Positions 5,087-57,738 of a stretch of DNA of 64,000 nucleotides are shown here, in pieces. A model generated the notes under the pieces. It did not search any database, was not told the origin of the DNA, and was given only the letters and a program-made list of their open reading frames with translations. The DNA is from Candidatus Woesearchaeota archaeon. Its GTDB lineage: Archaea; Nanobdellota; Nanobdellia; Woesearchaeales; SM23-78. The number at the start of each line of letters is the position of its first letter. Within the stretch, counting starts at the first letter, position 1. The position numbers and the translations under genes are program-made. The stretch lies in contig JAHWIP010000003.1 of the NCBI GenBank assembly GCA_019322375.1, positions 6,792 to 70,791 on the forward strand. The letters are read 5' to 3'.

Positions 5087-5515
5087 ATGGACCAGGCAGT
5101 TTGGGCAGTTTTTGGTATTATAGCAGTTCTTATTGGAATCGGGATTTTATTAAATGTGCTTGGAGAGAACAAGGATGAATCAAAGTATATTCTTTTTAAA
5201 CAATCCTTAGACTCACTAAAGAACCAGTGCGATTTTGTGTGCAACTCGCCTGCAGAAACTTATTTATCAATAATGGTTGAGCTGCCTTCTGGCATGCGCC
5301 TCTACACAGACCAGAACAGGATTTGCGCTCATCTGAATATTTATAAAAAATAATCTGATGAAACCAAGTGCGTGTTATGCAGTTGCCAGGTTGTAGTAAA
5401 AAACAATGAACTCAATCTCCAAACCCCGGCTGCTCTGAAAGCTTTTTCTTCTCATAAATATTCTTGCTTTTTTGAAAGAAAAGAAAATGAGATTGAAATC
5501 GAATGTAAGGGCTGA
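5087..5515 (+). pseudogene. Pilin-like paralog interrupted by an in-frame TAA at 5351-5353 (pseudogene, readthrough or sequence error)
   Basis: The track ORF 5087-5353 (88 aa) is shorter than its 136-141-aa paralogs. The same frame continues after TAA for 53 more codons (SDETKCVLCSCQVVVKNNELNLQTPAALKAFSSHKYSCFFERKENEIEIECKG) to TGA 5513-5515. That restores a 142-residue product whose C-terminus resembles the paralog ending RLECRDE. Confidence 0.5.
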
Positions 5516-6119
5516 TATCCTTGCTAATACTGTTTTATGGTTTGGAATCCTTATAGCAGCCATGATTTGCATGGCATGGCTAGTCAAGAATCTTCGCTCG
5601 CCTTATCTTCCAACAAAAGAACTGGATAATGAGCTTGACCAGTTGCAGCTGGATTTAAACAAGGCCTGCACAATGGATTATTTTTGGAAAAGATACTATC
5701 CCAAGGTTAACAAGGGCAAGCTGATATTCAATGACTTCCAGGTGTGCATGAATGCAGGAGAATGCAAAGTGCTTTTTTTTAAGCCAACCATGCCCAATGC
5801 ATCAGGGCACTTACTTGAAGGAAAAGATATCCTTCTGCCCAATGCAACAGAATGCGAGAATATTGAGCTTTGCCAAGCACTTTTTTTTACATCAGACAAT
5901 GAACCCCCTCTTATTGATTATATTGATGATGCTCAGGGCAGCAGGATAAGGATTAATAATGCTAATGTTTGTGAGCTTAAACCAAAACCAATAACAAGAT
6001 GCAGGCTGCTTACATGTTCATTAAATATAACAGAACATTTTTCCCTGGATAAAATTGTTTACCTTAACATAACAAGAGATAAAAGTGGTGTTTTCAGTGT
6101 TCAGCCAAAAGAATCCTAA
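5487..6119 (+). CDS. Pilin-like Cys-containing secreted protein
   Basis: The track starts at TTG 5472. ATG 5487 gives MRLKSNVRADILANTVLWFGILIAAMICMAWL, a basic leader plus a hydrophobic helix. Confidence 0.55.
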   Translation: MRLKSNVRADILANTVLWFGILIAAMICMAWLVKNLRSPYLPTKELDNELDQLQLDLNKACTMDYFWKRYYPKVNKGKLIFNDFQVCMNAGECKVLFFKPTMPNASGHLLEGKDILLPNATECENIELCQALFFTSDNEPPLIDYIDDAQGSRIRINNANVCELKPKPITRCRLLTCSLNITEHFSLDKIVYLNITRDKSGVFSVQPKES

Positions 6120-6147
6120 GCAGAATAAGTCTGGAAAGAAAAAGCCT

Positions 6148-6597
6148 ATGCAAAAAAAATCCAGGCAAAACAAGGGCATATATTCCTTAGCCACTTCCTT
6201 CTTATTTATTATCATATTAATATTTGTGGTCATAGCTGTGGTTTTCTTTTTTAACCTGTTAAAAGCCAAGAGAATGCAGGCAAGTGATGAGCTAGTAAAA
6301 TATGTGCATATAAGGGATGCTAAGAACAAGATTCTTTCATCTGAGTGCTATACGCATATTATAGAAGAAGCAGATGCTGAGCAGGAGTGCTTTCTGCCTG
6401 AAGGCTTTATCAAGGGATATGTTATTGAGATGCTGGTTTATCCTAACTGCACAACCCAGCACAAGACATGGGAGCATATGCTTGTTGAAGATGAAGCAGG
6501 GGCTGGTGAAGAAGGAGAAATTTATCCTTACTTTGTGCCTGTTCAAGCCAATACCACAGGCAATATTTGCCCTGGAAAACTAAAGGTGATATATTAA
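6148..6597 (+). CDS. Pilin-like secreted protein
   Basis: Internal ATG 6148 gives MQKKSRQNKG-IYSLATSFLFIIILIFVVIAVVFFF. The track start 6085 overlaps the previous gene. Confidence 0.5.
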   Translation: MQKKSRQNKGIYSLATSFLFIIILIFVVIAVVFFFNLLKAKRMQASDELVKYVHIRDAKNKILSSECYTHIIEEADAEQECFLPEGFIKGYVIEMLVYPNCTTQHKTWEHMLVEDEAGAGEEGEIYPYFVPVQANTTGNICPGKLKVIY

Positions 6598-6628
6598 AAG
6601 ACAGTATATTAAAAGGTGGTTCACTAAA

Positions 6629-8074
6629 ATGGGAGTTGTTGACAATATAATGGGAGCGGTTCTTGTTGTCCTTATACTATTGATTGCTGGCATTATTTAT
6701 CTGTCCCTTTTTGCACGCGAAGCATCACAGGATATTAGTGTGACCAGCACTGCTTTTTTTAATGGTATAAACACAAATAATTTTAACACTGTTCTTAAAA
6801 TAACAGAGGAGAATTCCCAAAAATCTTTGGGTGTTTTAATTTCAGAAATAACTTATTACAGGTCTTTGCCTGCGCAGTCAGATGACGGACCTAATGTAAC
6901 AGGGACTTTAAAGGATTTGCTGGATACTGCTTTTTCCACTAATGATTATTATTTCAAAGCAGAACCAGAACTAACACAGATTAGTCTGAACTTTGTTTTT
7001 GACGGCACACCCAGCTCTATGCTTAAGAGAAATGTATTAGCAAACAATCTGGTGAATATAATAGACTTTACCCAGGAAAAAATGGATAATAAAAGCAGAA
7101 GCGAGGGGCGTATTCCAAAAAACTCGGTTACAGCAGATGTATACATCATGGGTCCAAGAGGTGACAAATGCAATATCTTTGATGATTTAAACAGGGTTGA
7201 TATAAACTGCCATGGCATTCGCAGCAATGAGATATATTTAAGCGAGGACATGATGCAAGGACTTTTTGTGCCTGGTTTTCTGCTTGACTATGAAATGTAT
7301 CCTCCTTTTGGTTTTGAATGGATTGAGGAGGATGCTAACAGAGAAGACTCATACGTGGCTAATGAAGAAGATTATTATCAAGCTGACTGGGGTTTTGGAA
7401 CAGCTTATGTATCGCATAAACTAAGCAGTGCAGCTTATAGGAATCGTTTAAACCTTATTTTTCCTGTGAGTGATGAACTATCCACCAGCTCTATACCTGA
7501 TGATTGTTTTTACAAGACATTTATTCCTGACTGGGTTGTGTGCGCTCTTTGCGAGGATGAATGCCCTGTTGAAAGAGCTAACATATCCATTAGCAAGGCA
7601 ATAGAAGTGGCAACAGATTATAATCATGTGCTCATACCTGTTTATGGTTATGGAGGTGATTATGAAATAACCCATCCCCAGATTTATGATTGGAATGGCC
7701 TTGCAGGCACTTCAAGATATGTTGATGGTTTTGGAAGCCCTGGAAATACCTGGTGTGATGCTTCTGGGTGTGGTGGTTGTTCAGAACAACAAGGAGGCAT
7801 ATGCTTTCATCCTGATTGTGCAAGCATTCTGCAGGAGCACATGAACAGAATGGCTGATGAAACCAATGGAATATTCATTGACCTGACTGCTAGCCAGCAG
7901 GAATTTGCAGACACCATCTTTTCAACAATAAGCAATATCATGGACCAGTTCACAATAGAGATTGGGGTGAAAAATGAGAGCAGGGAAAGGGATGTGGTGG
8001 AAGTGAAACAGCCCCTGCCAGATGGAAATTCTCTTCCCTTGAAGTTATGGGTGTATAAGAATCAAAACATTTAA
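6629..8074 (+). CDS. N-terminally anchored large ectoprotein with a possible vWA-like (MIDAS-like) core
   Basis: MGVVDNIMGAVLVVLILLIAGIIYLSLF helix. A beta-strand-then-DxTxSSM pattern (ISLNFVFDGTPSSM) and later hydrophobic strand motifs (LIFPVSDE, VLIPVYGYGGD) resemble a vWA fold. Weak, by eye. Confidence 0.55.
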   Translation: MGVVDNIMGAVLVVLILLIAGIIYLSLFAREASQDISVTSTAFFNGINTNNFNTVLKITEENSQKSLGVLISEITYYRSLPAQSDDGPNVTGTLKDLLDTAFSTNDYYFKAEPELTQISLNFVFDGTPSSMLKRNVLANNLVNIIDFTQEKMDNKSRSEGRIPKNSVTADVYIMGPRGDKCNIFDDLNRVDINCHGIRSNEIYLSEDMMQGLFVPGFLLDYEMYPPFGFEWIEEDANREDSYVANEEDYYQADWGFGTAYVSHKLSSAAYRNRLNLIFPVSDELSTSSIPDDCFYKTFIPDWVVCALCEDECPVERANISISKAIEVATDYNHVLIPVYGYGGDYEITHPQIYDWNGLAGTSRYVDGFGSPGNTWCDASGCGGCSEQQGGICFHPDCASILQEHMNRMADETNGIFIDLTASQQEFADTIFSTISNIMDQFTIEIGVKNESRERDVVEVKQPLPDGNSLPLKLWVYKNQNI

Positions 8075-32266: not shown

Positions 32267-32626
32267 GGTAGAGCAGTTATAAGCCGCCTTTTGTCAGCCT
32301 CCACGTCTTGCATGGGCAGGCTGTGCTTAACATTCTACTAAGCGTCTCAAAGGACTTGCACCAGTGAGGACTCGCCGTTTCACCCATTCCCATGGCTTAA
32401 AGCGGTCGGGTTGTTAACTCGCGCCCTGTTGCCAGAGTGCTTCATTACCCTCATTCCTATCCATAGGTGGTCTCGTTTCTGAGCCGTTGCCCTGGCTTTC
32501 ACCAGCTAGCTTCCACTAGTCACTTTTCATGGTGGGCGGACTTTCCTAAGCAGAACAAGTCAAAACCGCGCCTTTGAAAGCGCAGGAAATGATAGGTCCT
32601 ACCTGCTGTTAAGCCACTGCCCTACC
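32267..32626 (-). ncRNA. rnpB: RNase P RNA, archaeal type A
   Basis: On the minus strand: P1 pairing GGTAGGGCAGT (5') with ACTGCTCTACC (3'). CR-I GGAAAGTCCGCCC, GGGTGAAACGGCG, and CR-V ACAAAAGGCGGCTTATA. A G+C-rich island with no ORF. Confidence 0.85.
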
Positions 32627-42865: not shown

Positions 42866-45800
42866 ATGGATAAAGTAAAACTGAGATTAAAAAACAGAAA
42901 AGCACAGGTTTACCCGCTTTTTGTAGTGGTCTTTACAATAGTGGCCTTGACAACAGCCCTTATTGGCTTGAGCAATGCAAAAGAGGTTACTGATTTATCT
43001 GGCAGGGAAATGCTTATCGGCACCAAGCAATCAGCTGTTTTTGCATCTCTTCAAGACGCAGATGCTGTTAGTTTATTCATAGAGCAGGCAGCAGAATTTG
43101 CAGGCCAGCAAGCCCTGGATAAAATAAGAAAATCATGCTTTTTTGGAGTTGATGAGGAACAAGAAGTTGATGAGTGGGAGTCTCCATGCGGCAAGTTTGT
43201 TTATCCTCTTTGGAGCACTAATGAAAATCTTTGCCTTCCTGATTGTGAAACAGCTTTTGTCAATGCCTTTAACAAGGATTTTTTAAGCCGAACAAACAAG
43301 TATTATGAGTTCACAAACATAGAGCTGCCTATTTCTTATAACATGAGCCTGGAAATACATGACAATCATTTTTTTGTTCATGGAACCTCTGACACAGAAC
43401 TAAGGATTAATGTGGTTGATATTCAGAGCAGGATTAAGTCTCCCCTGGCAATAGCCCAGACTTATGAGGAAGGCAGGCTTATCTGGCCTGTTGATTACTC
43501 TGACCACACAATCACCTCTTGCTTTGGTGAAAGAGATGTTGTTGGGGGGAGCAAATACCATCCTGCTGTTGATATCCGGGCTCCAAAAGGAACACCAGTG
43601 CTGGCAGCTGCTTTAGGAAAAGTGATTCTTACTGACCCTTGCTGGGGAAGAATTGTTATTAATCATGGCTCTGGCTTAAGCACAGAGTATCTTCACTTGG
43701 AAAAAATTGATGTTAAGGTTAATGATGATGTGGTGCAGGGACAAAGAATAGGAACTTCTGGCAGCAATGGCTGTGACACAAGAGAGTTTGTTCCGCACCT
43801 GCATTTTGGGGTTATATATCAAGGTGTTCAGTCACCCATGCATTATAAAGGGCAGGAAATAGTTTTGAGCAACAACCATATCCAGCCCATGTGCTTGATT
43901 GAAAAAGGGTATGCTGCTAAGCCAGAAAGCAACTGCAACCAGCTTGTGAACACAGACTTAGACAAGATTTGTGAATTGTATAATCTGCCAGAAGAATTTT
44001 TTGAATCATCAGAATCATCAAAGCCATCAGAGCCATCAGAACCAGACCAAGACACTTCTTCTGAAGAAAGTGCTGATGCAGAGAATGCTGGTGCAGAAAG
44101 TGTTAATGCAGAAAGCACTGAGCTGGATTATTCTCTGGCACAGGCTCCTGGCAGCTATGCTTTTAAACCATCTTTTACCTTGAGGGTTAACAAGAAAATA
44201 GAAAACCCTATTGAGCCAGTAACAGAGTGGTTTGAGAACACCTGGAACGAGTGCGAGGATGACCCTTGGAAATGTTTAAGAGAAAAAATGAGTGAGTTTA
44301 ATGAGCAGGACTATGATTACAAGCTCATGTTTGCTGACAGGTGCGAGGAAGGCTATCACTTGTTCTATGACATACTGGAGTTTTTTGAGGACTGCTTTTC
44401 AAACCAGAAGTATGGGTGCTCATGCGAGTTTAATTTATCAGATGCTTTTTCAATAACTGACTTGCGAATAGTTTTTGACACACAAGCAAACACAGCCTCT
44501 CTTTTTTCCAAGCAGGGAGATAAGCCTGGTGATGAATATGAATTAATTGATTCATACCAGTTCTATTATGGAAGCATAACCAAGCCAGCCCCTGCTTCTC
44601 CTTATAGGTATTATGTGTATCAGCTTGATTATGATGATTATGGGGAGCTGGAAAATGCAGAGCTTATGCAAATGAAGTCATTGCTTGATGTATTTGATGT
44701 TGTGCCTTTTTTTGATTACAAAGAACTAAGACTGGCAAAGCCAGGAGAGGCTGAGCAAGGATATTTTGTGAACACAGAAACAATTCAGTGCAAGTACAAG
44801 AAGAACAAGTTCAGGCTGTGTGCAAAGCCAGCACAGGAAAGAGAAGACTTGTTCCCTATAAGGTTTGCTTTTCACTTAAAAGACAAGCCTCCTGAGCCTG
44901 TTAAAAAAGGAGATGTGGAAATTATAGAGGTGGAGGAGAGTTCTGAGTCAGATGTTGACAAGGTAATGCAGGCAGCAGGCTTTCTAGGAACCATATTCCC
45001 TCCTCTAGGCTACTTGTTCACAGCAATTAATATTCTCAGTGTGTTGGAAGACTTTAAACCAAGAAAGTTCGAGGTAATAGTTGATGTTCCTCTTGACAAG
45101 GATGGCAAACCCCTGGATGTTGCTGGCTATGAAGTTTATTGCAGTGATTACCTGACAAACATCCTGCCAGTGGATGTTTTGGATAAATATAATCCAAGTC
45201 ATTTTGTTGTGATGGCTAATGATGAGATGAATAAAAAAGTAAGCCAGCTAGACCAGTATGTTAAGAAGAACCCTTACACAGACTTTCTGAATCTTGAGAG
45301 CTGTGATGTGCCTGTGAGCAAGTTCACAGGAGAAACCATTCTTGTGCCTGGAATCAAAGGGGTTGTTAAGGACGGTAAAATGGTTTTCAACCTTCATAAA
45401 TGCGGGGACTTGGCAATAATTATAGATAAACTAATAAGAAAAGACTACTGTGTATCACTAATACCTGTTGACAAGAATGGCAACAAGATAATGGAGCATG
45501 CTGTGAGCAACTGCGCGCAAACCAATTCACTGCTTGACCTGGTTATTAGTGAGATGATAGAGGAACAGCTAGGAGAATTTATTCCTGCAAGCCTTATACC
45601 TGATAATTTAAAGCCTTATATCAAGCTGCCTGACACAAGCGATATTGTTAATGCAGTAACAGGGGAAGGCAGTTTTGACATGATAGACATTGTTAATCTT
45701 GACAAGCTGGACGCAGACATAAAAAATTATCTTGAGGAATTCGTGGTTGGAACTATTAATGAAGACATAATAGGCACTTCTGTTGTTAATTCTATTGATG

Positions 45801-46639
45801 ACTTAAAGCTCTGGGAAAAACAAACAGTGCTTAACACCCTGTCAAACCAGATAAAAAATGATGATGCAAAAACCTTGTTTGATGCCTTTGTAACAGGAGA
45901 AGGTGTTGCTGAGTCTGCCAAGCGCATGGCTTATGAAAAAGGAGTAGGATATATAGACCAGACAAAAACACCTGAGATACTTAAGGAGATAGCCAAAGGA
46001 GAAGACCCTAAAAGCCTTGCATACCAGGAACTGGTAAAAGCAGCTGAGAAAGAGCTCAGCACTGACGAGAAAAAACAGGCTCTGCTGGAGATAGCCAGGA
46101 GCAGCAGTGGAAGAGAGGTAAAAGATAAGATAATAGAAAAAGCCCTTGAAAAAGGATGCGGCGAGTCATATGGAATAAGTGCAGAGCAGGCAATCAACTG
46201 CCTTGACAATGAAGAGGTAGAAAATATTTATCACAAAGTTCTGACAGACTACAGCACACCAGACAAGGTAAAACAGTTTTTGCTTGACAAGGCAATTGAC
46301 AAGTTTGATGAAAAAACACCAGACGTGCTAAAAGAGATTGTTCTGAAAAGAGACTTTAAAGGAGCAGCAAAGGACATGCTTGAGAAAGAGCTTGACAAGC
46401 TTCCAGACGCTGTTAAGAAAGAGTTTATTACTGATATACTTGAAGGCAGGCTTCCAGATGTTGAGTACTTGCAGCAGGAACTAGTGAAAATGATACCAGC
46501 AGTAAACAATGAATATGTGAATGCCCTGCTAAAAGACGGCAATGTTAAAAACCTGATAGAATCAACCCTTAAATCAGAGATAGAAAAACAACTAGGCTCA
46601 TTCTTCTCAGATGAATGCGTGGCAATTAATAAGGATTGA
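42866..46639 (+). CDS. Giant (1257-aa) pilin-like protein with an M23 (LytM-type) metallopeptidase domain
   Basis: KNRKA-QVYPLFVVVFTIVALTTALIGL N-terminus. M23 motifs YHPAVDIRAP (HxxxD) and PHLHFGV (HxH) at about nt 43478-43841. Acidic S/E linker, an internal hydrophobic segment at about nt 44972-45046, and a K/E-rich repetitive helical C-terminus. Confidence 0.7.
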   Translation: MDKVKLRLKNRKAQVYPLFVVVFTIVALTTALIGLSNAKEVTDLSGREMLIGTKQSAVFASLQDADAVSLFIEQAAEFAGQQALDKIRKSCFFGVDEEQEVDEWESPCGKFVYPLWSTNENLCLPDCETAFVNAFNKDFLSRTNKYYEFTNIELPISYNMSLEIHDNHFFVHGTSDTELRINVVDIQSRIKSPLAIAQTYEEGRLIWPVDYSDHTITSCFGERDVVGGSKYHPAVDIRAPKGTPVLAAALGKVILTDPCWGRIVINHGSGLSTEYLHLEKIDVKVNDDVVQGQRIGTSGSNGCDTREFVPHLHFGVIYQGVQSPMHYKGQEIVLSNNHIQPMCLIEKGYAAKPESNCNQLVNTDLDKICELYNLPEEFFESSESSKPSEPSEPDQDTSSEESADAENAGAESVNAESTELDYSLAQAPGSYAFKPSFTLRVNKKIENPIEPVTEWFENTWNECEDDPWKCLREKMSEFNEQDYDYKLMFADRCEEGYHLFYDILEFFEDCFSNQKYGCSCEFNLSDAFSITDLRIVFDTQANTASLFSKQGDKPGDEYELIDSYQFYYGSITKPAPASPYRYYVYQLDYDDYGELENAELMQMKSLLDVFDVVPFFDYKELRLAKPGEAEQGYFVNTETIQCKYKKNKFRLCAKPAQEREDLFPIRFAFHLKDKPPEPVKKGDVEIIEVEESSESDVDKVMQAAGFLGTIFPPLGYLFTAINILSVLEDFKPRKFEVIVDVPLDKDGKPLDVAGYEVYCSDYLTNILPVDVLDKYNPSHFVVMANDEMNKKVSQLDQYVKKNPYTDFLNLESCDVPVSKFTGETILVPGIKGVVKDGKMVFNLHKCGDLAIIIDKLIRKDYCVSLIPVDKNGNKIMEHAVSNCAQTNSLLDLVISEMIEEQLGEFIPASLIPDNLKPYIKLPDTSDIVNAVTGEGSFDMIDIVNLDKLDADIKNYLEEFVVGTINEDIIGTSVVNSIDDLKLWEKQTVLNTLSNQIKNDDAKTLFDAFVTGEGVAESAKRMAYEKGVGYIDQTKTPEILKEIAKGEDPKSLAYQELVKAAEKELSTDEKKQALLEIARSSSGREVKDKIIEKALEKGCGESYGISAEQAINCLDNEEVENIYHKVLTDYSTPDKVKQFLLDKAIDKFDEKTPDVLKEIVLKRDFKGAAKDMLEKELDKLPDAVKKEFITDILEGRLPDVEYLQQELVKMIPAVNNEYVNALLKDGNVKNLIESTLKSEIEKQLGSFFSDECVAINKD

Positions 46640-48091: not shown

Positions 48092-50200
48092 TTATCTTAC
48101 AACCCTGTCAAGACCAGCTTTTATAAAGGGCTCTTTTAATTTGTTTAATGCTTTTAATTCAATCTGTCTTATTCTTTCCCTGGTAACTTTGAATTCTATA
48201 CCAACTTCGTCCAAGGTATGGAAATTATACTTACCAATTCCAAAGCGCATGTAAAGAATTTTAATTTTTCTTTTACGGTCAGGATCCTTTTTAAAAGTGT
48301 CATGGATAACTTTTCTGACCTGATAACCTACTAATGATTGTGCAGCAGCATGTTCAGTATCAGCTTTTGGATCCTCAACAAGCTCACCTATTTCAACCTC
48401 TACTTCTTCTCCTATTGTTGTTGATAGTGAGATTGGTTTTTCAGCCCATTTTTTATACTTCTCAACTCTTTCCTCAGCAACATTCATTTCTTTAGCAACT
48501 TCTTCTGTTGTTGGCTCTCTGCCTAACCTGCCAAATAATTTCCTGGCAATTCCCAAGTACTTGTTTATTTTTTCCACTGAATGCACAGGAGTCCTGATAG
48601 TCCTTGCCTGGTCTGCTATAGCCCTTGTTATTGACTGTTTAATCCACCAAGTAGCATATGTTGAAAATTTATACCCTCTTCTGTATTCCCAGCTGTCTAT
48701 TGCTCTTAGAGCTCCCATGTTTCCCTCCTGAATCAGGTCAGTAAATTCCATACCCCTGTGCTGGTATTTTTTTGCTATACTCACAACCAGTTTTGTATTT
48801 GAACTTGCAAGCTCATTTTTGTTAGATATAAGCTCATCATGAAGCTTTTCTATTTCAGGGCTAACAGGGTCAAGATGAGGAAATATTGATTTGTAAGTTT
48901 CATAAGTTTTTTTCCAGTATTTTTTTTTGAATTTAAGTTTGCTAAGAAGCTTTTTCAGTGCAAAATCTCCTTTTTCTTTGGCATTATGAAAGTTCTCTAT
49001 AAATTCTATTTTTTCCCGAGCAGTCTTCTCATAACCTTTCCAAAGTCGTACTATTTCATCCGGGTGATTTATTTTAATAGCCTTTTCTATATCTTTTACA
49101 ACATAATCAACCAGGCATTCTGGCTTCTTATTGTCGCCTTGCAGGGAGCGCTCTTCAGACAATCCATTGTACAAGAAATTCCTGCTCTCAATTGTTTTGA
49201 ACTCATTAAACAGTTCTGTTAAGTATTTTGTTACAAACAAGTATTTTCCTAGAAAAGATTTTAGGGCTTTCTCCCTTCTTTTCTCAGCCTTTTCAAACTT
49301 TTTTTTGAAGACGTTCACATCTTCACAACAAATAATATCTTCAAGGTCTTTTCCCTTGTTTTCAAGGGTTTCATCCAAGCTTTCACCATGTTTTTTATTC
49401 AAGGCTTCCTGGGCTTCCAGGGCTTCATTAATATCCTTTCTTATTTTATTTAAGATATATTTTTTCTCAATAATATGCTTGAATATTTCTTCTCTTTTCT
49501 GCTCTATTTTTTTTCCAAAAGCATATTCCTGCTCTCTTGTTAGCAAGGCGTGCTTGCCCATGGAACTTAAAATAAAACTTGTTTCACTGCCAATATATGT
49601 CTTTCTCAAGTCTACTTTATCCTCCTCAAGGTCAGAGTACTCTTTTATCAAGAACTTATAATTATCATTAAAAATCTTATTTTTGTTTTCCAGAGCAGTT
49701 CTGTGCATGTCAAGAAGCAAGTTATAATAGAACTTTCTAACATCTGCCCTGTCATATTTTTTTCCATAGTCTAACTTAACAGGGTCGACATACCTGCTTA
49801 GTATAATGTCATGTTTTTTCATGTATGGGTCTCCGAATTCTTTTGGAGTCTTGGTTTCAATCTCTCTTTTTTTTTGCATCAGGTATGCCATAAATCCCCT
49901 TAACGAGATATAACTGTCTCTGTTTATATAGTCCAGGCAGAAAAAAGGATTTTTCTTAGCAAGCTTGATAAGAGCGCTGTTTTCAATATGAAATACTTTA
50001 GCAAGGTCAGCTGTTCTGAGCCTTTGGGAGTATCCAACTTCTTGTTTTAGAACAGAACCTTTTTGTATCAGGTCAAGAAAGAATTTTGAATCCATCTCTA
50101 TGTTTTCCCAGACAGAGGCTCCGAATTTTTCTTTGATTTGAGCAGGGCGCAGGTATATACCTTTGCTCTCTTCTAGAAAAGCATGGGCTGCTTCTTGCAT
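48092..50200 (-). CDS. Bacterial-type sigma-70 family protein (regions 1.2, 2, 3, 4) with a long N-terminal extension
   Basis: [53 protein letters not shown] (regions 2.1-2.4), [14 protein letters not shown] (1.2-like) and [18 protein letters not shown] (4.2 HTH). Confidence 0.8.
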
Positions 50201-50266
50201 TTTACTTTTTCACATAATTTAAAATATGTTTTAAATATATTTAAAATAATATATTCATATTTATTT

Positions 50267-52498
50267 TTAAACAATTTGGTATTCTTGCCTTACCTTCTTG
50301 TTTTTTTCAATGATAGGGATGAGCTGCTCTACAGCGCTTTTATGAAAAGCCTTTAAGTAGGTGTCTGTTGATGTCATTTTTAAGAAAGGAAAATCAGGGT
50401 CTGTGCTCATTCTGCTAAGCTGTTTGGGCTGAATCCTCATGCCAGTTGCTTCATATATATAATTTGAAGCTTGATGCACTCCAATTGTTTCTTTCTTGTC
50501 TTTTTTTATTAGTTCTATTTTTTCATCAAAGAACTTGGTAATAAAGATTTCTTCAAAACCGTTTTTTACAAGATAAACAGGCATGGTATTGCCTAGTTTT
50601 TCTATGTAGCTTATTTTCTTTTCAGGGTTATTGAACTCGTATCTTCTGAGATTCTTGATTAGTTTGGTTTCTATATGCTGGAACCGGGTTACACTTGTCC
50701 TTGCAAAGTTCTCTCTTATTATCTCAACCAGAAGTTTGTGCCCCCTAATTTTCTGAAGAATTTCAATTGCTTCAGCTCCCTTGTAAGTTTCGCTTGGTCT
50801 TTGATTAAAGAGACCTGCTTCTGCAAGCCTTCTGAAAACCAAAAGATTTCTTCCAGTGATTTCTGAAAGTTCTGACCCAGGGTACAGCCTTAAAGGATAA
50901 ATCTCTAGCATGTCTGGCCTGGTTTCAAGCCTTAAATCACCAATGCCTTCAAAAATCTGGGCAAGAGTCCTGCTGTTTTTAGATATAAGATTGTCATCTT
51001 CTTCAAAATACATTTCATCCAGCATGTCTATGAAACGCTTCATACCAAACTCTTTGAACTGCTCTGCTCTGTGCTTTGCAATAGCATACCCACAGTCCCT
51101 GCGAAATTCTGCTTTGAGGTGAGCCAAAAGATTTCTATCATCCTCAATTCTTTTTTCCTTATTTATGTAAATAACAGCACCATCTTCCTCTGTTTCCATA
51201 TATTTAGCAAAAGGGCCGGAAACTGATGGTTCTGCCAGCTCAATTTTAGTTTTTTTGTCTAATCTTTTTTCAACCCAGTCTGTTGCTTCTTTAAGAAAAT
51301 TTCTTAGCTTTGCTTCTTCTTTTTTTTCCTGCTCTCTCTTTATGTTTGTATAGATTCCGCGAGCAATATTTTTTATATGACTTTTTAGTTCTAAAAGCTC
51401 CTCAGTCCCTTTTTGTATGCGCTGCTTGTCAAATCCAAGATCTGGCTTTAATGATTCTACTTCTATAAACCCATATGTGCGTGCTGCAAAACCCAGAGCC
51501 ATTTCTTCCAGCTTGACAATTCCTCCTTCGCCCAGGGTTCTTCCAACCACAAGATGAATTCCACGCACATCCTTTTCTATTGTTTTATGCGGAAGATAAT
51601 ATATATGCCCTCTAATAGGACCGCATTTTTCTAGGGCATCCTTGATTTCATAAACAATTGCTTCTTTTGGAATAGGGGTTTCTATCTCTATATCATTCAT
51701 TTTTACTCTAAAAGCAGGGCTGAGCTGGAGTGCAAACTTTTGTTTAATCAAATCAGCAAGCTTGTCTGTTTCAATTGTGATTTTTCCTTTTTTAGAACCC
51801 AAAGGCTTCATAATGATTTCTGTGCCATGTTTTTTTTGGTCAGTTATTCTTTCTTCACTATAACTAACCTTTCCCCATAAGCCCTGATTAATTATTTTTT
51901 CTAAAGAACCATACTCTTCCTCAACATCCTCTATAAGCAGACTGGTGTTTAACTCAGGTATGGTGTGAGGGGATTCTCTTTTATCAAGAACTCTTTTGAC
52001 AATCCGCTCAATATATTTATCTTTTTGCTTCTCATTAAGATTCATCTCTTCAAACTTAGGGCTGGTTAAGATGGAGTGCTGAATGGTTTTTCTTACAAAC
52101 ACCTCTTTGGTATGATATTTTTTTCCTTTTCCTTTTTTTACTGTGCTCATTTGATAGCCAAAACAAAGGTATCTTATGAACTCCTTGCCTACTCCTGCAT
52201 CACCTATTTTTAGTCTTCCAGTGCGGGTTCTGGGGTTAAGCTTCTTAATATTAGTGCCATAAGTATTGAAGTGCTTAAGGTCTTCAAGATTCATGCCTTC
52301 CCCATTATCTCTTATGAGAAGACTTTTATTTTTATCATCAATTATTATTTCCACAAGAGGAGCATCTGCATCCCAGGCATTATCAATGCCCTGTATTATT
52401 GCTTCATAAGGGCTTAGAAATAGGGATTTGCCAAGATTCTCATGAAACTCTTTTGAGATTCCTCTCCTTACTTTAACAGTTTTCTTTGTCATCAACAC
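50267..52498 (-). CDS. GHKL-superfamily (HATPase_c_3 / MORC-like) ATPase with a large unassigned C-terminal region
   Basis: N-box IDNAWDADA, G1 box IRDNGEGM and G2-like GDAGVGKEF in the first ~110 aa. 743 aa in total. Confidence 0.65.
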   Translation of the reverse strand: MLMTKKTVKVRRGISKEFHENLGKSLFLSPYEAIIQGIDNAWDADAPLVEIIIDDKNKSLLIRDNGEGMNLEDLKHFNTYGTNIKKLNPRTRTGRLKIGDAGVGKEFIRYLCFGYQMSTVKKGKGKKYHTKEVFVRKTIQHSILTSPKFEEMNLNEKQKDKYIERIVKRVLDKRESPHTIPELNTSLLIEDVEEEYGSLEKIINQGLWGKVSYSEERITDQKKHGTEIIMKPLGSKKGKITIETDKLADLIKQKFALQLSPAFRVKMNDIEIETPIPKEAIVYEIKDALEKCGPIRGHIYYLPHKTIEKDVRGIHLVVGRTLGEGGIVKLEEMALGFAARTYGFIEVESLKPDLGFDKQRIQKGTEELLELKSHIKNIARGIYTNIKREQEKKEEAKLRNFLKEATDWVEKRLDKKTKIELAEPSVSGPFAKYMETEEDGAVIYINKEKRIEDDRNLLAHLKAEFRRDCGYAIAKHRAEQFKEFGMKRFIDMLDEMYFEEDDNLISKNSRTLAQIFEGIGDLRLETRPDMLEIYPLRLYPGSELSEITGRNLLVFRRLAEAGLFNQRPSETYKGAEAIEILQKIRGHKLLVEIIRENFARTSVTRFQHIETKLIKNLRRYEFNNPEKKISYIEKLGNTMPVYLVKNGFEEIFITKFFDEKIELIKKDKKETIGVHQASNYIYEATGMRIQPKQLSRMSTDPDFPFLKMTSTDTYLKAFHKSAVEQLIPIIEKNKKVRQEYQIV

Positions 52499-52676
52499 CC
52501 CCCGCGCCCCTCTGTTTTGCTACTGAATAATAGATATTTTATTTAAACCTTTCTATTTTAGAGACACAGATTTGACAGATAATAATTGCAAGCCATGTTT
52601 ATATACTTTACTCAGGGATGTCCAGTGCCTATTTTAGAAAATTTTTTAAACTACTGTTCTTATACCATATACTAGA

Positions 52677-53739: not shown

Positions 53740-54135
53740 TTAATAAAGATAGTCCGGAGTTCCCCAGTACCCTCCGCAGCCTTTACAAGCAGATTCTGAG
53801 CTACATGCACGGTTATACTTGCAGCATCCAGGAGTTTTTCTTGAAGTTGCATAACAAAAACATGTCACCCGACCACAATGAGGATCTCCCCCGCCAGATT
53901 CCATTGGCTTTCCCACCACGTTTTCTTCTTCCATTACTTCAGAAAGCATGTCATATTCCTCATCAGTAAGCCCAGACACAACATATGCCTTTTGTAATTC
54001 AGGTTCAGATGTTGTTGTAATTGTGGCTGCCTCTTCCCCTCTATTCATAAACATAACTACTATTGCCACTATGGCTACTATTGCTACCATTGCTATTAGT
54101 GCGAATAAGTAGTTGCCTTTGTCTTTTTCTGCCAT
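53740..54135 (-). CDS. Small N-terminally anchored protein with a Cys-rich C-terminus
   Basis: NYLFALIAMVAIVAIVAIVVMF anchor. C-terminus CGRVTCFCYATSRKTPGCCKYNRACSSESACKGCGGYW. Confidence 0.5.
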   Translation of the reverse strand: MAEKDKGNYLFALIAMVAIVAIVAIVVMFMNRGEEAATITTTSEPELQKAYVVSGLTDEEYDMLSEVMEEENVVGKPMESGGGDPHCGRVTCFCYATSRKTPGCCKYNRACSSESACKGCGGYWGTPDYLY

Positions 54136-54264: not shown

Positions 54265-57200
54265 ATGTTTTCCTGGGCTTGTATGGCACAATCATCCATG
54301 TTTATTGGCAAGTTTGAATTTGAAGGGCCAGGCTCACACCTAACCATGACTCTTTGGCAGGGTAACAAGGCTTACCAGTTCTCAACTAATTTCATAGGGG
54401 TTTATCCTAATGACCAGACCAAGCTTAAGAAGAAAAAAACCATTTGGCCTGCAAGCAGGGAAAAAAAGATTTCTCTTGAAAAAATACTTGTGGAACAGGG
54501 CTTGGAAAAATCAGATTCTTTTGATATAAAACAGGGAGAATACGCCTTTGATATAATAGACAAAAGAATTGTGCAGCTTTTTCTGGATAAAAGAGATTAT
54601 GACAAGCTTCCGGAAGAAGCAACCAATGAGCTGATCACCTGCCACACTCAAAGCATGAAATGGGATTTTGGAATCATGCAAAAAGCAGAGATAGAGTCCT
54701 GGTTGTTAAAGATACTAAAGGAAAAGAGCAAGTTAGACCAGGAAATTGATTCCTTGTACAAGGCAATGCTCAGGACCAATAAGAAACAATTAACAGGTTC
54801 ATTAGATGATATAACGAGTTTTATTAAAAAAGATTATCATAAAGATGACTTTGATAAAAAAATTATTCCTTTGCTTTTTGAAAGCATTGGGTACAGATTT
54901 AAACAACAAGAAGATAAAAATTTATTGATTCACCTATTTCAGCAGACCAGGTATTCTTTTAAGCACAAGCATCATTATATTAATGCACAGAAAAAAGTGT
55001 TTGAGCCTTTAGACATAGAGATTGATTACCCTAAATTAACAGACAAGAAAAATGATGCTTATTATAAAAAGATATTAAAAAAGCCTTTTGGCAGAAGATT
55101 TCTTGAAAACAGCAAGCAGGTGCTTGGTGAAAAAGGCATAGATGCAATATTTTCCAAAGATAAGGAGATATACATCCTTAAATCAGAGCAGGAAGAATTG
55201 TTTAATACCTTTAAGAGACTGCTGAGCCATAAAGCAGAGTATCCTGATGTAGAGGACTATGTGGAGAGCATAAAATACCAGCTGGAAGACTTGTTCTGCA
55301 GAGTACAATACTTTAATCTTCACAGCAAGACACGCAAAGACCTTAGGAAGCTGGTTAAGGAAAAACTAGAAGAAATAGGGGGCGAAGAGAGAGACAAAGA
55401 TAATTTGAATTATGATAAAAAGATTTTTGAACGTGCACAAAGACTCAGGCAAAAAAAGCAGGACTTGGAGAGCAGGATTAAGCAGATAAAAAGCTCCAAC
55501 ACCCTGAAGTATGACTTTGACTACCAGAGAACAATGCTCTTTCTTGACATAATGCACAGGCATCCTGAAGTAAAAGGAGATGATAAGCTTAAAAAAAAGC
55601 TTAGAAAAAAGATTTATTTTGAAGGAATAAAACCAAAAGGAATGATTAATGAGCATGAATGGCTTGACCAGACACCCAGTGTTTTCCTGGACATAGAAAA
55701 ATTTCAGTATGGAACACCAGAAGAGGTTATTAATGCAATTATATCTTCTGTAAGAAGAGTAGATGGAGAATACATAGGGCGGATAGATACTGATATTGAT
55801 TCAGGAGAAAAAAATATTCTTGGTTTTCAAATAAAACACCACCATAATAATATGAACCTGATGCTATCCTCTGCTGATTTTATTAATCCAGAAAGATGCT
55901 ATACTTACTTTACCCAGGGCGACTATGATTTTAAGCATTTAAGCAAAACCAGGCTTTTTAGGACTGGCAAGGAAAAAGTGATTGTTCCAAGGCAAAAGGT
56001 GCATGAGGAGTTTATCAGGCGTTATGACATACCAGGCGTATCTATTAACACAGTCACGCTTGCAAAAATAATTTGGCCTCACCTGCTTAATCACAGATTA
56101 GCAACTCTTGTCAACAAATTATATCAAAAAGAAGGAACAGAAAAAGTATTTGAAAAATCATTTGACTATGAAGAATTAAGAGAACAAGCAGGGTTGGCCA
56201 AAAAAGGAGATAAAGAAAAAGCTTATGACATACTATATTATGGAGGGGATGATGTTGATAAACCATTCAAAGCCTGGCTTCATCCAAAAGCCAGATACAT
56301 CTTTAAAGACCTGCTGGAAGTGTGCAACACCTTTGGCATAACACCTGACCAGGCAAGCTCTAATGCTAACACAGCAGCCCATCTTTTTGAAAAAAGATTT
56401 TATGAAAAATCCGGAGGCATACTCTCTCCAGGCATCTTTAGGCAGAAACACCAGGAATTGGCCAAGGAGTTCAGAAACAAATATACTGAGTACAGAACCA
56501 AACATTTGCTAGAGCAAGGCCTGAAAATAGATTTTGAAAGAGGAGTCCAGGACAATGTCAGCCAGCTCTACTTTTCTCCAGAACTGTTCATATGCAAAGT
56601 GCTTTACCCTGATTTTCCAGGAGTAAAAGCCTTTGTTGACAGAACCATGCGCATGAAAAACCCTGAAAGAAAGGTCAGCAGGCTGCAGTATGTAAAACCC
56701 TTTGTGGTAAGCATGCTAACAGATTTATACGGAATTCATAAGATACAAGACGAGATAAAAGTGCTTGAGAAAGAAAAAGCTGAACTTCTTGAGGAAATAA
56801 GAGGAATGCCTGAAAGCCAGGAAAAACAGTCGGAAAAAGAACAAAAAATAAAGGCTTTTGGAGGGAAATGGGAAAAAATCATTGACAAATTAATAAGCAT
56901 GAATAATAAGAAGTATTTCTTTGGACAACTATTCGGAGTTAAATGCGAAAAAGTAGAGGAAAGAGTACAGCAGGCATACAAAACAATAGCAGATGTAATC
57001 AATGAGAATGATATTCATCCCTTGCAAATAAAAGGCAACTTTATCTATGCAAAAGAAAATCTTCCTGACAAGGTGCTGAGAAAAGCAGGCTTGTTCAGGA
57101 TGAGGAATATGCGAATATTTAATATGCAGAAAAATGAACTCACTTTTCATGCAGAAGACCAGTACGCAGGCTACCCGCCCAGGCTTGACCGCCCGGGTTT

Positions 57201-57738
57201 TCATTACAGCATGTTCCAGACAAGAATAATCAAAGAAGCCCTGGACAGGCTTTTGCAAAAAAAAGAAGACTATCTTGGAGTCCTTAATATTATAAACACA
57301 AGCTCAACCAAATTATCTGCAGACCTGCCAACAGCCCTTGTTAATCCTAAATTAGAAAAAAACCAGGCATTTATACAGGACTTGTTAAAATACAATAGAA
57401 CCAAGAACCGCTATGTGGGCAATGATGAAAAAGGAAAAAGAGAATTTACAGAGCACAACAAAAAATTCTACAGGCCAGATCCCAAGTACTTTATGAGAAA
57501 GTTCTATGGAAAAACAAGCAAAGACATAGATGTTCATGCTCCTATAGCCAAGCTCTTTGGAGGAATAATAAACCTGGGAGAAGACAATTCCAGTGATACA
57601 AAAAAAGAATTTTGGCGTCAAAGACAGATGTACAGGCAGCTAATATCTGAGACTATGCTGAGCAGGCAGGAATTAAAGCAGATTTTAAACCAAGAGCTTG
57701 CAGTGCATGAACCAGGCGGACAGTTTATTATTATGTAA
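54265..57738 (+). CDS. Divergent family-B DNA polymerase-like protein (exonuclease motifs present, polymerase motif C not recognisable)
   Basis: Exo I VFLDIEKF, Exo II YFTQGDYDFKHL, Exo III YDILYYGGDDVDK, motif-A-like VQDNVSQLYFSPE. Where YGDTDS is expected I read IKGNFIYAKE, and where KKRYAG is expected I read EDQYAGY. Start codon uncertain. Confidence 0.45.
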   Translation: MFSWACMAQSSMFIGKFEFEGPGSHLTMTLWQGNKAYQFSTNFIGVYPNDQTKLKKKKTIWPASREKKISLEKILVEQGLEKSDSFDIKQGEYAFDIIDKRIVQLFLDKRDYDKLPEEATNELITCHTQSMKWDFGIMQKAEIESWLLKILKEKSKLDQEIDSLYKAMLRTNKKQLTGSLDDITSFIKKDYHKDDFDKKIIPLLFESIGYRFKQQEDKNLLIHLFQQTRYSFKHKHHYINAQKKVFEPLDIEIDYPKLTDKKNDAYYKKILKKPFGRRFLENSKQVLGEKGIDAIFSKDKEIYILKSEQEELFNTFKRLLSHKAEYPDVEDYVESIKYQLEDLFCRVQYFNLHSKTRKDLRKLVKEKLEEIGGEERDKDNLNYDKKIFERAQRLRQKKQDLESRIKQIKSSNTLKYDFDYQRTMLFLDIMHRHPEVKGDDKLKKKLRKKIYFEGIKPKGMINEHEWLDQTPSVFLDIEKFQYGTPEEVINAIISSVRRVDGEYIGRIDTDIDSGEKNILGFQIKHHHNNMNLMLSSADFINPERCYTYFTQGDYDFKHLSKTRLFRTGKEKVIVPRQKVHEEFIRRYDIPGVSINTVTLAKIIWPHLLNHRLATLVNKLYQKEGTEKVFEKSFDYEELREQAGLAKKGDKEKAYDILYYGGDDVDKPFKAWLHPKARYIFKDLLEVCNTFGITPDQASSNANTAAHLFEKRFYEKSGGILSPGIFRQKHQELAKEFRNKYTEYRTKHLLEQGLKIDFERGVQDNVSQLYFSPELFICKVLYPDFPGVKAFVDRTMRMKNPERKVSRLQYVKPFVVSMLTDLYGIHKIQDEIKVLEKEKAELLEEIRGMPESQEKQSEKEQKIKAFGGKWEKIIDKLISMNNKKYFFGQLFGVKCEKVEERVQQAYKTIADVINENDIHPLQIKGNFIYAKENLPDKVLRKAGLFRMRNMRIFNMQKNELTFHAEDQYAGYPPRLDRPGFHYSMFQTRIIKEALDRLLQKKEDYLGVLNIINTSSTKLSADLPTALVNPKLEKNQAFIQDLLKYNRTKNRYVGNDEKGKREFTEHNKKFYRPDPKYFMRKFYGKTSKDIDVHAPIAKLFGGIINLGEDNSSDTKKEFWRQRQMYRQLISETMLSRQELKQILNQELAVHEPGGQFIIM

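Follow-up and report, generated by a model that had tools for sequence, protein, structure and literature searches.

In the 64,000-nucleotide stretch of contig JAHWIP010000003.1 from a Candidatus Woesearchaeota archaeon, hereafter called the window, two adjacent genes on the reverse strand encode a MORC-like GHKL ATPase and a sigma-70 family protein (Table 1). The ATPase belongs to a previously undescribed, DPANN-centred MORC-like family, the architecture of which comprises GHKL and S5 domains, a long helix, a zincin-like domain and one or two probable winged helices of the MerR/excisionase type. An earlier note on this DNA, made from the sequence alone, had described both genes. The open reading frame (ORF) that it gave for the ATPase, the peptides quoted from it and the gap of 66 nucleotides (nt) between the genes proved exact. 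Its GHKL assignment is borne out by a Pfam match to HATPase_c_3 (E=1.1e-11; 45.4 bits, cut-off 25; amino acids (aa) 31-154), and its sigma-70-like assignment by matches to Sigma70 regions 1.2, 2, 3 and 4, each above the Pfam cut-off. A 100% identical NCBI protein, annotated as "ATP-binding protein [Candidatus Woesearchaeota archaeon]", is 741 aa long and starts at the ATG two codons downstream of the GTG of the ORF.

Table 1. Features of the ATPase-sigma operon in window coordinates, listed in the direction of transcription
Feature	Position	Strand	Remarks
BRE and TATA box of the operon, AGAAAGG-TTTAAATA	52540..52554	-	sequence upstream of the ATPase gene
ATCTATTATTCAGTAGCAAA, between TATA box and Shine-Dalgarno	52511-52535	-	identical in L001, L002, L003 and L007
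Shine-Dalgarno GGGGGGTG	~52496-52504	-	ahead of the ATPase start
MORC-like GHKL ATPase gene	50267..52498	-	743-aa ORF from GTG 52498; probable start ATG 52492, 741 aa
GHKL (Bergerat-fold) ATP-binding domain	51860..52456	-	aa 15-213; helical insert at ~aa 135-200
S5-fold transducer (middle) domain	51413..51859	-	aa 214-362, directly after the GHKL domain
Single long helix	51263..51403	-	aa 366-412, 47 residues; from model secondary structure
Alpha/beta domain	50984..51250	-	aa 417-505; zincin-like fold resemblance, provisional
Winged helix 1, probable MerR/excisionase-type (HTH_17-like)	50699..50896	-	aa 535-600
Second C-terminal strand-helix-helix-strand-helix module	50279..50488	-	aa 671-740; model secondary-structure pattern
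AT-rich spacer between the two genes	50201..50266	-	66 nt
Sigma-70 family partner gene	48092..50200	-	702 aa; Pfam and NCBIfam
Sigma N-terminal domain, lineage-specific	49601-50200	-	aa 1-200
Sigma region 1.2	49490-49570	-	Pfam
Sigma long insert	48836-49489	-	between regions 1.2 and 2
Sigma region 2	48599-48805	-	Pfam
Sigma region 3	48353-48574	-	Pfam
Sigma region 4	48131-48262	-	Pfam

Domain architecture of the ATPase and of its sigma partner

The nucleotide-binding motifs of the ATPase are found in the peptides IDNAWDADA (aa 38-46, nt 52361-52387), IRDNGEGM (aa 62-69, nt 52292-52315) and GDAGVGKEF (aa 99-107). Motif I contains N40 and D43, both nearly invariant in the family; D64-G66-G68 form motif II and G99/G102 form motif III, and N40, D64, G66, G68, G99 and G102 are near-invariant over 103 relatives. 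A glutamine, Q36, occupies the position where the catalytic glutamate is expected, aligning with E29 of MutL in a HMMER alignment that places the N40 motif on MutL N33. This position is Gln in the window protein and at the related loci L001-L003 and L008 (loci of relatives are designated by L numbers), and Glu in 88% of the family. The presence of Q36 in place of the catalytic Glu predicts ATP binding with poor hydrolysis; by analogy with known GHKL E-to-Q mutants, the window ATPase would bind its nucleotide and hydrolyse it slowly. In the transducer domain, N268, G313, R320 and G323 are conserved in the family, and position 358 is Lys in the window protein and Arg in 90% of the family.

An AlphaFold model of the ATPase based on an alignment of 103 relatives (mean predicted local distance difference test (pLDDT) value 90.6, predicted template modelling (pTM) score 0.80) has as its structural matches MORC3 (21.5), MORC2 (19.4), the ATPase module of SMCHD1 (18.9), TRAP1 (17.3) and MutL (16.6), and a Foldseek comparison is consistent with matches of the MORC/MutL/Hsp90 type. 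These fold matches identify the N-terminal ~360 residues as a GHKL domain plus S5 transducer, and, as judged from the model, the N-terminus is not a GHKL domain of the histidine- or serine-kinase type. Sequence searches matched MORC3 at superfamily level only (E 0.024). No curated family in Pfam, NCBIfam, PADLOC or PHROGs spans the whole protein; PADLOC gave a weak match to REase_II and PHROGs an unannotated family. The long helix behind the transducer is a possible coiled-coil or dimerisation arm in the model. The zincin-like domain has no HExxH motif and is predicted to be non-catalytic, and neither the fold comparison of the model nor the family alignment revealed a nuclease fold or motif.

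The C-terminus contains the segment LYPGSELSEITGRNLLVFRRLAEAG (aa 538-562), which the earlier note had likened to an excisionase/MerR-type helix-turn-helix (HTH). It lies inside winged helix 1, which bears the family signature P-x-R-L-Y...E...G with Y539 kept in 95% of the members. When winged helix 1 fragments were scanned alone, HTH_17 was matched by 11 of 40 homologues (best E 3.4e-4) and MerR_1 by 3 of 40, and a profile of this module gave weak matches in the PDB, mostly to MerR-type and related small DNA-binding proteins (CarH, CadR, BldC and Cox). The proposal is thus supported at the level of the fold; the window's own fragment did not reach HTH_17 at E 0.1 in Pfam. The module at the extreme C-terminus is tentatively regarded, from the secondary structure of the model, as a second winged helix. 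Profile-profile comparison revealed no significant similarity between the two modules, between either of them and the N-terminus of the sigma protein, or between the N-termini of FliA-like sigma proteins of the family and any of these three regions (probabilities <= 11% throughout). Pfam scans of the isolated ATPase C-terminus, the ATPase middle region, the sigma N-terminus and the sigma insert yielded nothing useful.

The C-terminal third of the sigma protein, comprising regions 2-4, shares 55% identity with the RpoD proteins of Aminicenantes and Acidobacteria, and it keeps the core-binding helix (DLIQEGNMG), the residues that read the -10 element and the helix that reads the -35 element (TRERIRQIE). 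The best RpoD model of NCBIfam scores 339 bits with a cut-off of 555, so that the RpoD equivalog cut-off is not reached. Region 1.1, which bacterial relatives carry as PF03979, gave no Sigma70_r1_1 match; its place is taken by a domain of ~200 aa seen only in the partners of type A loci (described below). The segment quoted by the earlier note as an HTH of the sigma protein corresponds to aa 60-84 of this domain. A two-sequence AlphaFold model of the N-terminus reached a pLDDT of only 51, with an uninformative fold search; within that low-confidence model, aa 60-116 adopt a strand-helix-helix-hairpin-helix order compatible with a winged helix. Sigma-70 genes (fam00359) are "particularly prevalent in Woesearchaeota" according to Castelle et al. 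2021 (PMC8204110), and the window gene is evidently one of them. The same paper reports that no anti-sigma factors were found and calls the controlling mechanism unclear. In addition, a 2025 study lists "rpoS" among auxiliary genes on DPANN viruses or prophage (PMC12647753), and DPANN sigma-family genes may also travel on mobile elements.

Conservation of the pair, its promoter and its surroundings

A word-indexed protein search with the ATPase returned only 3 proteins, and the family becomes visible through an exhaustive profile search, which brought up 1416 representatives of related proteins, 181 of them with E<1e-10 and 58 with E<1e-30. Loci around relatives were collected by exact-protein look-up and pattern scans, and all of their ORFs were then searched with ATPase-family and sigma profiles. 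The scan patterns miss the window's own clade, and the genome and metagenome censuses accordingly under-sample the RpoD-linked (type A) members; most matches in IMG/VR, the metagenomes and the GTDB genomes have the GHKL+S5 part alone, and these other paraMORC-like proteins were left out of the counts. Of the 80 best GTDB representative-genome loci, 2 have the full architecture, both of them DPANN (Woesearchaeota and Nanoarchaeia). Bacterial, other archaeal and viral matches have only the GHKL+S5 part in common with it, and no full-architecture relative was found on IMG/VR contigs.

The pair is conserved well beyond the window: neighbourhood comparison finds it in 12 lineages that have diverged from one another, the two genes overlapping or lying very close together and the flanks varying, and five lineages of the census have no sigma partner. 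The core of the earlier note's reading is thereby supported, since the outcome that it had named as refuting the pairing, a pair kept in no other genome, did not occur. A sigma gene lies directly downstream of the ATPase gene in the window and at L001, L003, L006, L007, L008, L009, L012, L097 (probable), L016, L098, L103 and L105. In type A (the window, L001, L003 (=L004, L005), L006, L007, L008 and L009), one ATPase of ~722-747 aa precedes an RpoD-like sigma protein of ~700 aa with the same lineage-specific N-terminal domain. Type B (L012 (=L013, L096) and probably L097) consists of a 663-aa ATPase overlapping a 391-aa sigma protein by 4 nt, and type C (L016 (=L100), L098, L103 and L105) of a tandem pair of paralogous ATPases, ~600 and ~685 aa long, ahead of a sigma protein of ~419 aa. 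At L010, L011, L017 and L102, tandem ATPases are present and the contig ends before the next gene. By NCBIfam class, the type A sigma proteins are RpoD-like and those of types B and C FliA/WhiG-like. The four top scorers on the window-clade ATPase profile beyond its own members are all of type A, showing that ATPase clades track sigma class. Identity between the ATPases of sigma-paired lineages is 22-45%, with the exception of L001/L003 (78%), and the ATPase-sigma junctions of the relatives measure -4 to 23 nt (gaps of 2-23 nt or overlaps of 4 nt), the window alone differing with its 66 nt. The flanking genes vary between paired loci (L008, L012, L016, L098, L103 and L105); at L008, the pair is kept among wholly different neighbours (tRNA methyltransferase, EF-1beta and IleRS). 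The pairing of the ATPase with a sigma protein is not accidental.

Several loci show further variation. In the tandem ATPases of type C organisation (L010, L016, L017, L098, L103 and L105), the Glu of motif I is intact in both paralogues, which suggests a heterodimeric clamp. At L016 (Woesearchaeota UBA10200, DUGA01000080), the FliA-like sigma gene is followed at 5336-7243 by a gene for a 635-aa protein of several HTH modules (HTH_23, HTH_50, HTH_17-like and others), suggesting that type C loci include larger DNA-binding operons. In an uncultured Gammaproteobacteria metagenome-assembled genome (CAZRGC010000001; L020, 4773-7365), a 288-aa ORF follows, and overlaps, that of a 590-aa GHKL+S5 relative and combines an HTH resembling Sigma70_r4 with a TrmB-like winged helix; this arrangement may be a bacterial echo of the pairing of ATPase and sigma domain. 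Finally, the contigs of L004 and L007, from one ENA sample (ERZ23498458), start at the same base, and their positions 1-85 are a 95%-identical promoter and 5' untranslated region. The ATPases behind this shared promoter are only ~29% identical, and the sigma-like ORF of L007 ends after 338 aa, without regions 2-4; the two loci could represent allelic cassette replacement, paralogues or an assembly fork.

Upstream of the operon lies a canonical archaeal promoter with the TATA octamer TTTAAATA at 52540-52547 (-). The octamer and an A-rich BRE (TFB recognition element)-like stretch recur at the same distance upstream in L001, L002, L003, L006, L007, L008 and L009, and a Shine-Dalgarno is conserved there as well. 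Woesearchaeota rely on TBP, TFB and TFE together with an RNA polymerase that is eukaryote-like, and the promoter consensus implies that the operon would be transcribed by this archaeal machinery. The element ATCTATTATTCAGTAGCAAA may be an operator or initiator; at the four other loci where it is identical, the proteins are only 27-53% identical to that of the window. The intergenic spacer contains no hairpin terminator, its T runs reaching T4 only, and it holds a second exact TTTAAATA at 50238-50245 (-), 45 nt ahead of the sigma ATG, which is a possible internal promoter as judged from its sequence. The window spacer is 43-64 nt longer than those of the other type A loci and, compared with the 10-16 nt at L001 and L003, looks like a local AT-rich expansion. 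Co-transcription, which the earlier note had proposed, is the only reasonable reading in the relatives and less certain in the window, where the sigma gene could be transcribed by read-through or from an internal promoter.

Of the genes on either side of the window's operon, that for RPA is convergent with it and that for a CARDB protein divergent; a YdjM protein is also encoded near it. Across the loci, housekeeping genes for RPA, RadA, ribosomal protein S2 and tRNA synthetases are found in the flanks, and RadA and archaeal RPA genes are both among the genes of the window. The window further contains an archaeal RNase P RNA at 32269-32573 (-) (RF00373, 121 bits), and no tRNA genes were found across its 64 kb. 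The RNase P RNA, RadA and RPA mark the DNA as archaeal, and the NCBI proteins identical to those of the window are assigned to Candidatus Woesearchaeota. Its GC content is ~37% with no anomaly at the locus, and orphan genes are numerous. A 1157-aa ORF at 54265-57738 (+) has no match in Pfam, NCBIfam, PADLOC or PHROGs, and a 131-aa protein at 53740-54135 (-), which has a membrane helix at its N-terminus and is Cys-rich at the other end, has no Pfam match. At 42866-46639 (+), a gene whose stop codon overlaps the beginning of the RPA gene encodes a protein of 1257 aa in which only an M23 peptidase domain (aa 231-321) can be recognised. The stand-alone ATPase relative of L014 likewise has an M23 protein, of 2028 aa, encoded in its vicinity.

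Proposed role of the pair and competing explanations

With moderate confidence, the ATPase is proposed to act on DNA as a partner dedicated to the sigma protein or as its regulator. Binding of ATP would dimerise the N-terminal domains and close a clamp, as in MORC, MutL and Hsp90, and the C-terminal winged helices would keep this clamp on DNA. The sigma protein, with intact -10/-35 readers and without region 1.1, would provide sequence-specific DNA recognition, or it would be a client that is held and released by the clamp; the ATPase would thus deliver or hold the sigma protein at specific DNA sites, or gate its activity. In the window clade, Q36 would favour a long-lived closed state, that is, a slow switch rather than a motor, and the pair would serve the archaeal cell as a DNA-binding module with a regulatory or chromatin-like function. 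A bolder version, which is decidedly unlikely, holds that the sigma-ATPase complex may recognise promoter-like DNA, open it and either silence the site or bring in the archaeal polymerase via its homologous clamp coiled-coil, with no bacterial polymerase involved. If true, this would represent a third, hybrid mode of promoter control beside sigma/core and TBP/TFB.

Several points weigh against the proposal that the ATPase is the DNA-acting partner of the sigma protein. Contact between the two proteins, DNA binding, switching by ATP and the cellular role are inferred, and the winged helix of the window protein falls short of HTH_17 on its own. To our knowledge, archaea possess no bacterial RNA polymerase core, which leaves the role of a sigma protein a puzzle, and promoters of the -35/-10 type are not enriched in the intergenic DNA of the window, which makes up 12% of it and holds 2 of 37 matches (at least 10/12). 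Five full-architecture ATPases (L014, L101, L106, L195 and L196) have no sigma gene within ~6 kb, implying that the ATPase can function without an adjacent sigma protein. Furthermore, the family is highly divergent and two very different cassettes stand behind one promoter, a pattern commoner in conflict systems.

This last pattern is part of the case for a minimal module of antiviral defence or conflict, comparable to MzaA and MzaB, in which the sigma protein would sense or bind invader DNA or transcription machinery and the ATPase would transduce the signal or execute the response; such a role is considered unlikely. NCBIfam places MzaA in the sigma-70 family and names MzaB an ATPase, and the mzaABCDE system has been experimentally validated (bioRxiv 10.1101/2022.06.16.496414). 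The window sigma protein scores 279 bits on MzaA (174 bits on the MzaA model of PADLOC), and MzaB is weakly matched by 14 of 43 family ATPases in NCBIfam and 4 of 43 in PADLOC. However, 279 bits is far below the MzaA cut-off of 800 and also below the 339 bits obtained with RpoD, the match reflecting shared sigma regions, and at E <= 0.01 neither PADLOC nor NCBIfam gives an MzaB match for the window ATPase. Prokaryotic MORC/paraMORC ATPases occur mostly in restriction-modification contexts, according to PMC2292703, and among curated families the N-terminus of the ATPase matches the BbrUII/HgiDII restriction enzymes best; the fast divergence of the ATPase family and the cassettes of ~29% identity behind a 95%-identical promoter in one sample (L004/L007) fit a defence role as well. 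In contrast, the genes scanned near the window operon include none for MzaC, MzaD or MzaE and none for a nuclease, methylase, helicase or AIPR, the model is devoid of a nuclease fold, the surroundings are of the housekeeping kind in several lineages, and full-architecture relatives are absent from IMG/VR contigs.

A further explanation is that the two genes are neighbours by descent only, with unrelated functions, for example a nucleoid or repair ATPase next to a separately acquired bacterial sigma gene. The closest relatives (L001-L005) also have the flanking CARDB and RPA genes, so that part of the synteny is simple relatedness, and the five stand-alone family members and the TATA-like box in the window spacer point the same way. 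This explanation is nevertheless very unlikely: the pairing persists through complete turnover of the flanks (L008, L012, L016, L098, L103 and L105), through replacement of the sigma class (RpoD-like versus FliA/WhiG-like) and through duplication of the ATPase ahead of the sigma gene, and the junctions overlap or measure at most 23 nt. It is highly improbable, in turn, that the ATPase is an anti-sigma serine kinase of the SpoIIAB/RsbW type, sequestering the sigma protein and phosphorylating an anti-anti-sigma partner. Such kinases have the GHKL fold and are encoded beside their sigma genes, and PMC8204110 names no other anti-sigma candidate in these archaea. However, the SpoIIAB match spans 94 residues of generic Bergerat fold, the top matches (MORC, MutL and Hsp90) have an S5 transducer that the kinases do not, the window ATPase is five times larger, the fitting Pfam model is HATPase_c_3 instead of the kinase-type HATPase_c, and no STAS or anti-anti-sigma gene was found among the neighbours scanned. 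Finally, the sigma protein, with the ATPase as its chaperone, might be aimed at the bacterial RNA polymerase of a host or neighbour of an episymbiotic archaeon. The RpoD-like partner retains the core-binding helix (DLIQEGNxG), all -10/-35 readers and 45-55% identity to bacterial RpoD, a conservation not readily accounted for unless the protein binds something like an RNA polymerase. That contact could instead be the clamp coiled-coil of the archaeal RNA polymerase, which is homologous to the bacterial one; no export signal or secretion apparatus turned up, no search having been aimed at them, no host is known, and the idea is extremely remote.

For the unexplained sigma factors of these archaea, the ATPase is the first candidate for a partner. 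An ATPase partner would make the role and control of archaeal sigma-70 directly testable through assays of mutual binding, DNA binding and polymerase binding.

Comparison with known systems

The window ATPase is a member of the MORC/paraMORC structural class (Iyer, Abhiman & Aravind 2008, PMC2292703), sharing GHKL and S5 domains and being structurally nearest to MORC3, MORC2 and SMCHD1, and belongs to none of the families or contexts described for that class. In contrast to those proteins, it has no CW, coiled-coil-hinge, nuclease or TIR domain and carries a zincin-like domain and MerR/Xis-type winged helices instead; the catalytic Glu is replaced by Gln in the window clade, and the full architecture was seen only in DPANN archaea among the collections scanned. 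No restriction-modification components (SF2 helicase, endonuclease or methylase) were found beside the window operon or at 12 related loci, where sigma-70 and housekeeping genes are present instead. The family thereby adds a new architecture and a new context, sigma instead of restriction-modification, to the MORC/paraMORC radiation, the eukaryotic MORCs of which are chromatin silencers. The best curated match, to the BbrUII/HgiDII restriction enzymes (NF050001), is confined to the N-terminal 120 residues and shared by 41 of 43 relatives. Membership in that family was rejected, as the match reaches 52 bits with a cut-off of 550 over ATPase aa 22-140 (model 13-136 of 659) and the C-terminal nuclease is absent.

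The earlier note had found no name for a GHKL-plus-sigma pair. A named precedent does exist, namely MzaB and MzaA (NF041932 and NF041931), which is the sole named pair of a MutL/MORC-like GHKL ATPase and an N-terminally extended sigma-70 protein; the window locus does not belong to it. Membership in mzaABCDE was rejected on the MzaA score, which stems from generic sigma regions only, on the missing MzaB match and on the absence of MzaC, MzaD and MzaE. The window pair further differs in being archaeal, in its housekeeping context and in its gene order, ATPase then sigma, and the Mza system has the MzaD nuclease; on the archaeal side, the pair would correspond to MzaA-MzaB, itself unexplained within its bacterial defence system. 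SpoIIAB and RsbW are likewise GHKL-fold proteins encoded beside a sigma gene, and those control their sigma factor. Membership in this group was also rejected, since the window ATPase is not a single-domain HATPase_c kinase of ~140-160 aa with a STAS partner.

The conserved ATPase partner, its architecture and its coupling to two sigma classes were not found in the searchable literature, the sigma genes themselves being already known (PMC8204110); in the main text of Castelle et al. 2021, as far as searchable, the word "ATPase" occurs 0 times. Compared with the Woesearchaeota sigma-70 genes treated in that paper, the sigma gene of the window is of the same kind, and the conserved ATPase in its operon is the new element.

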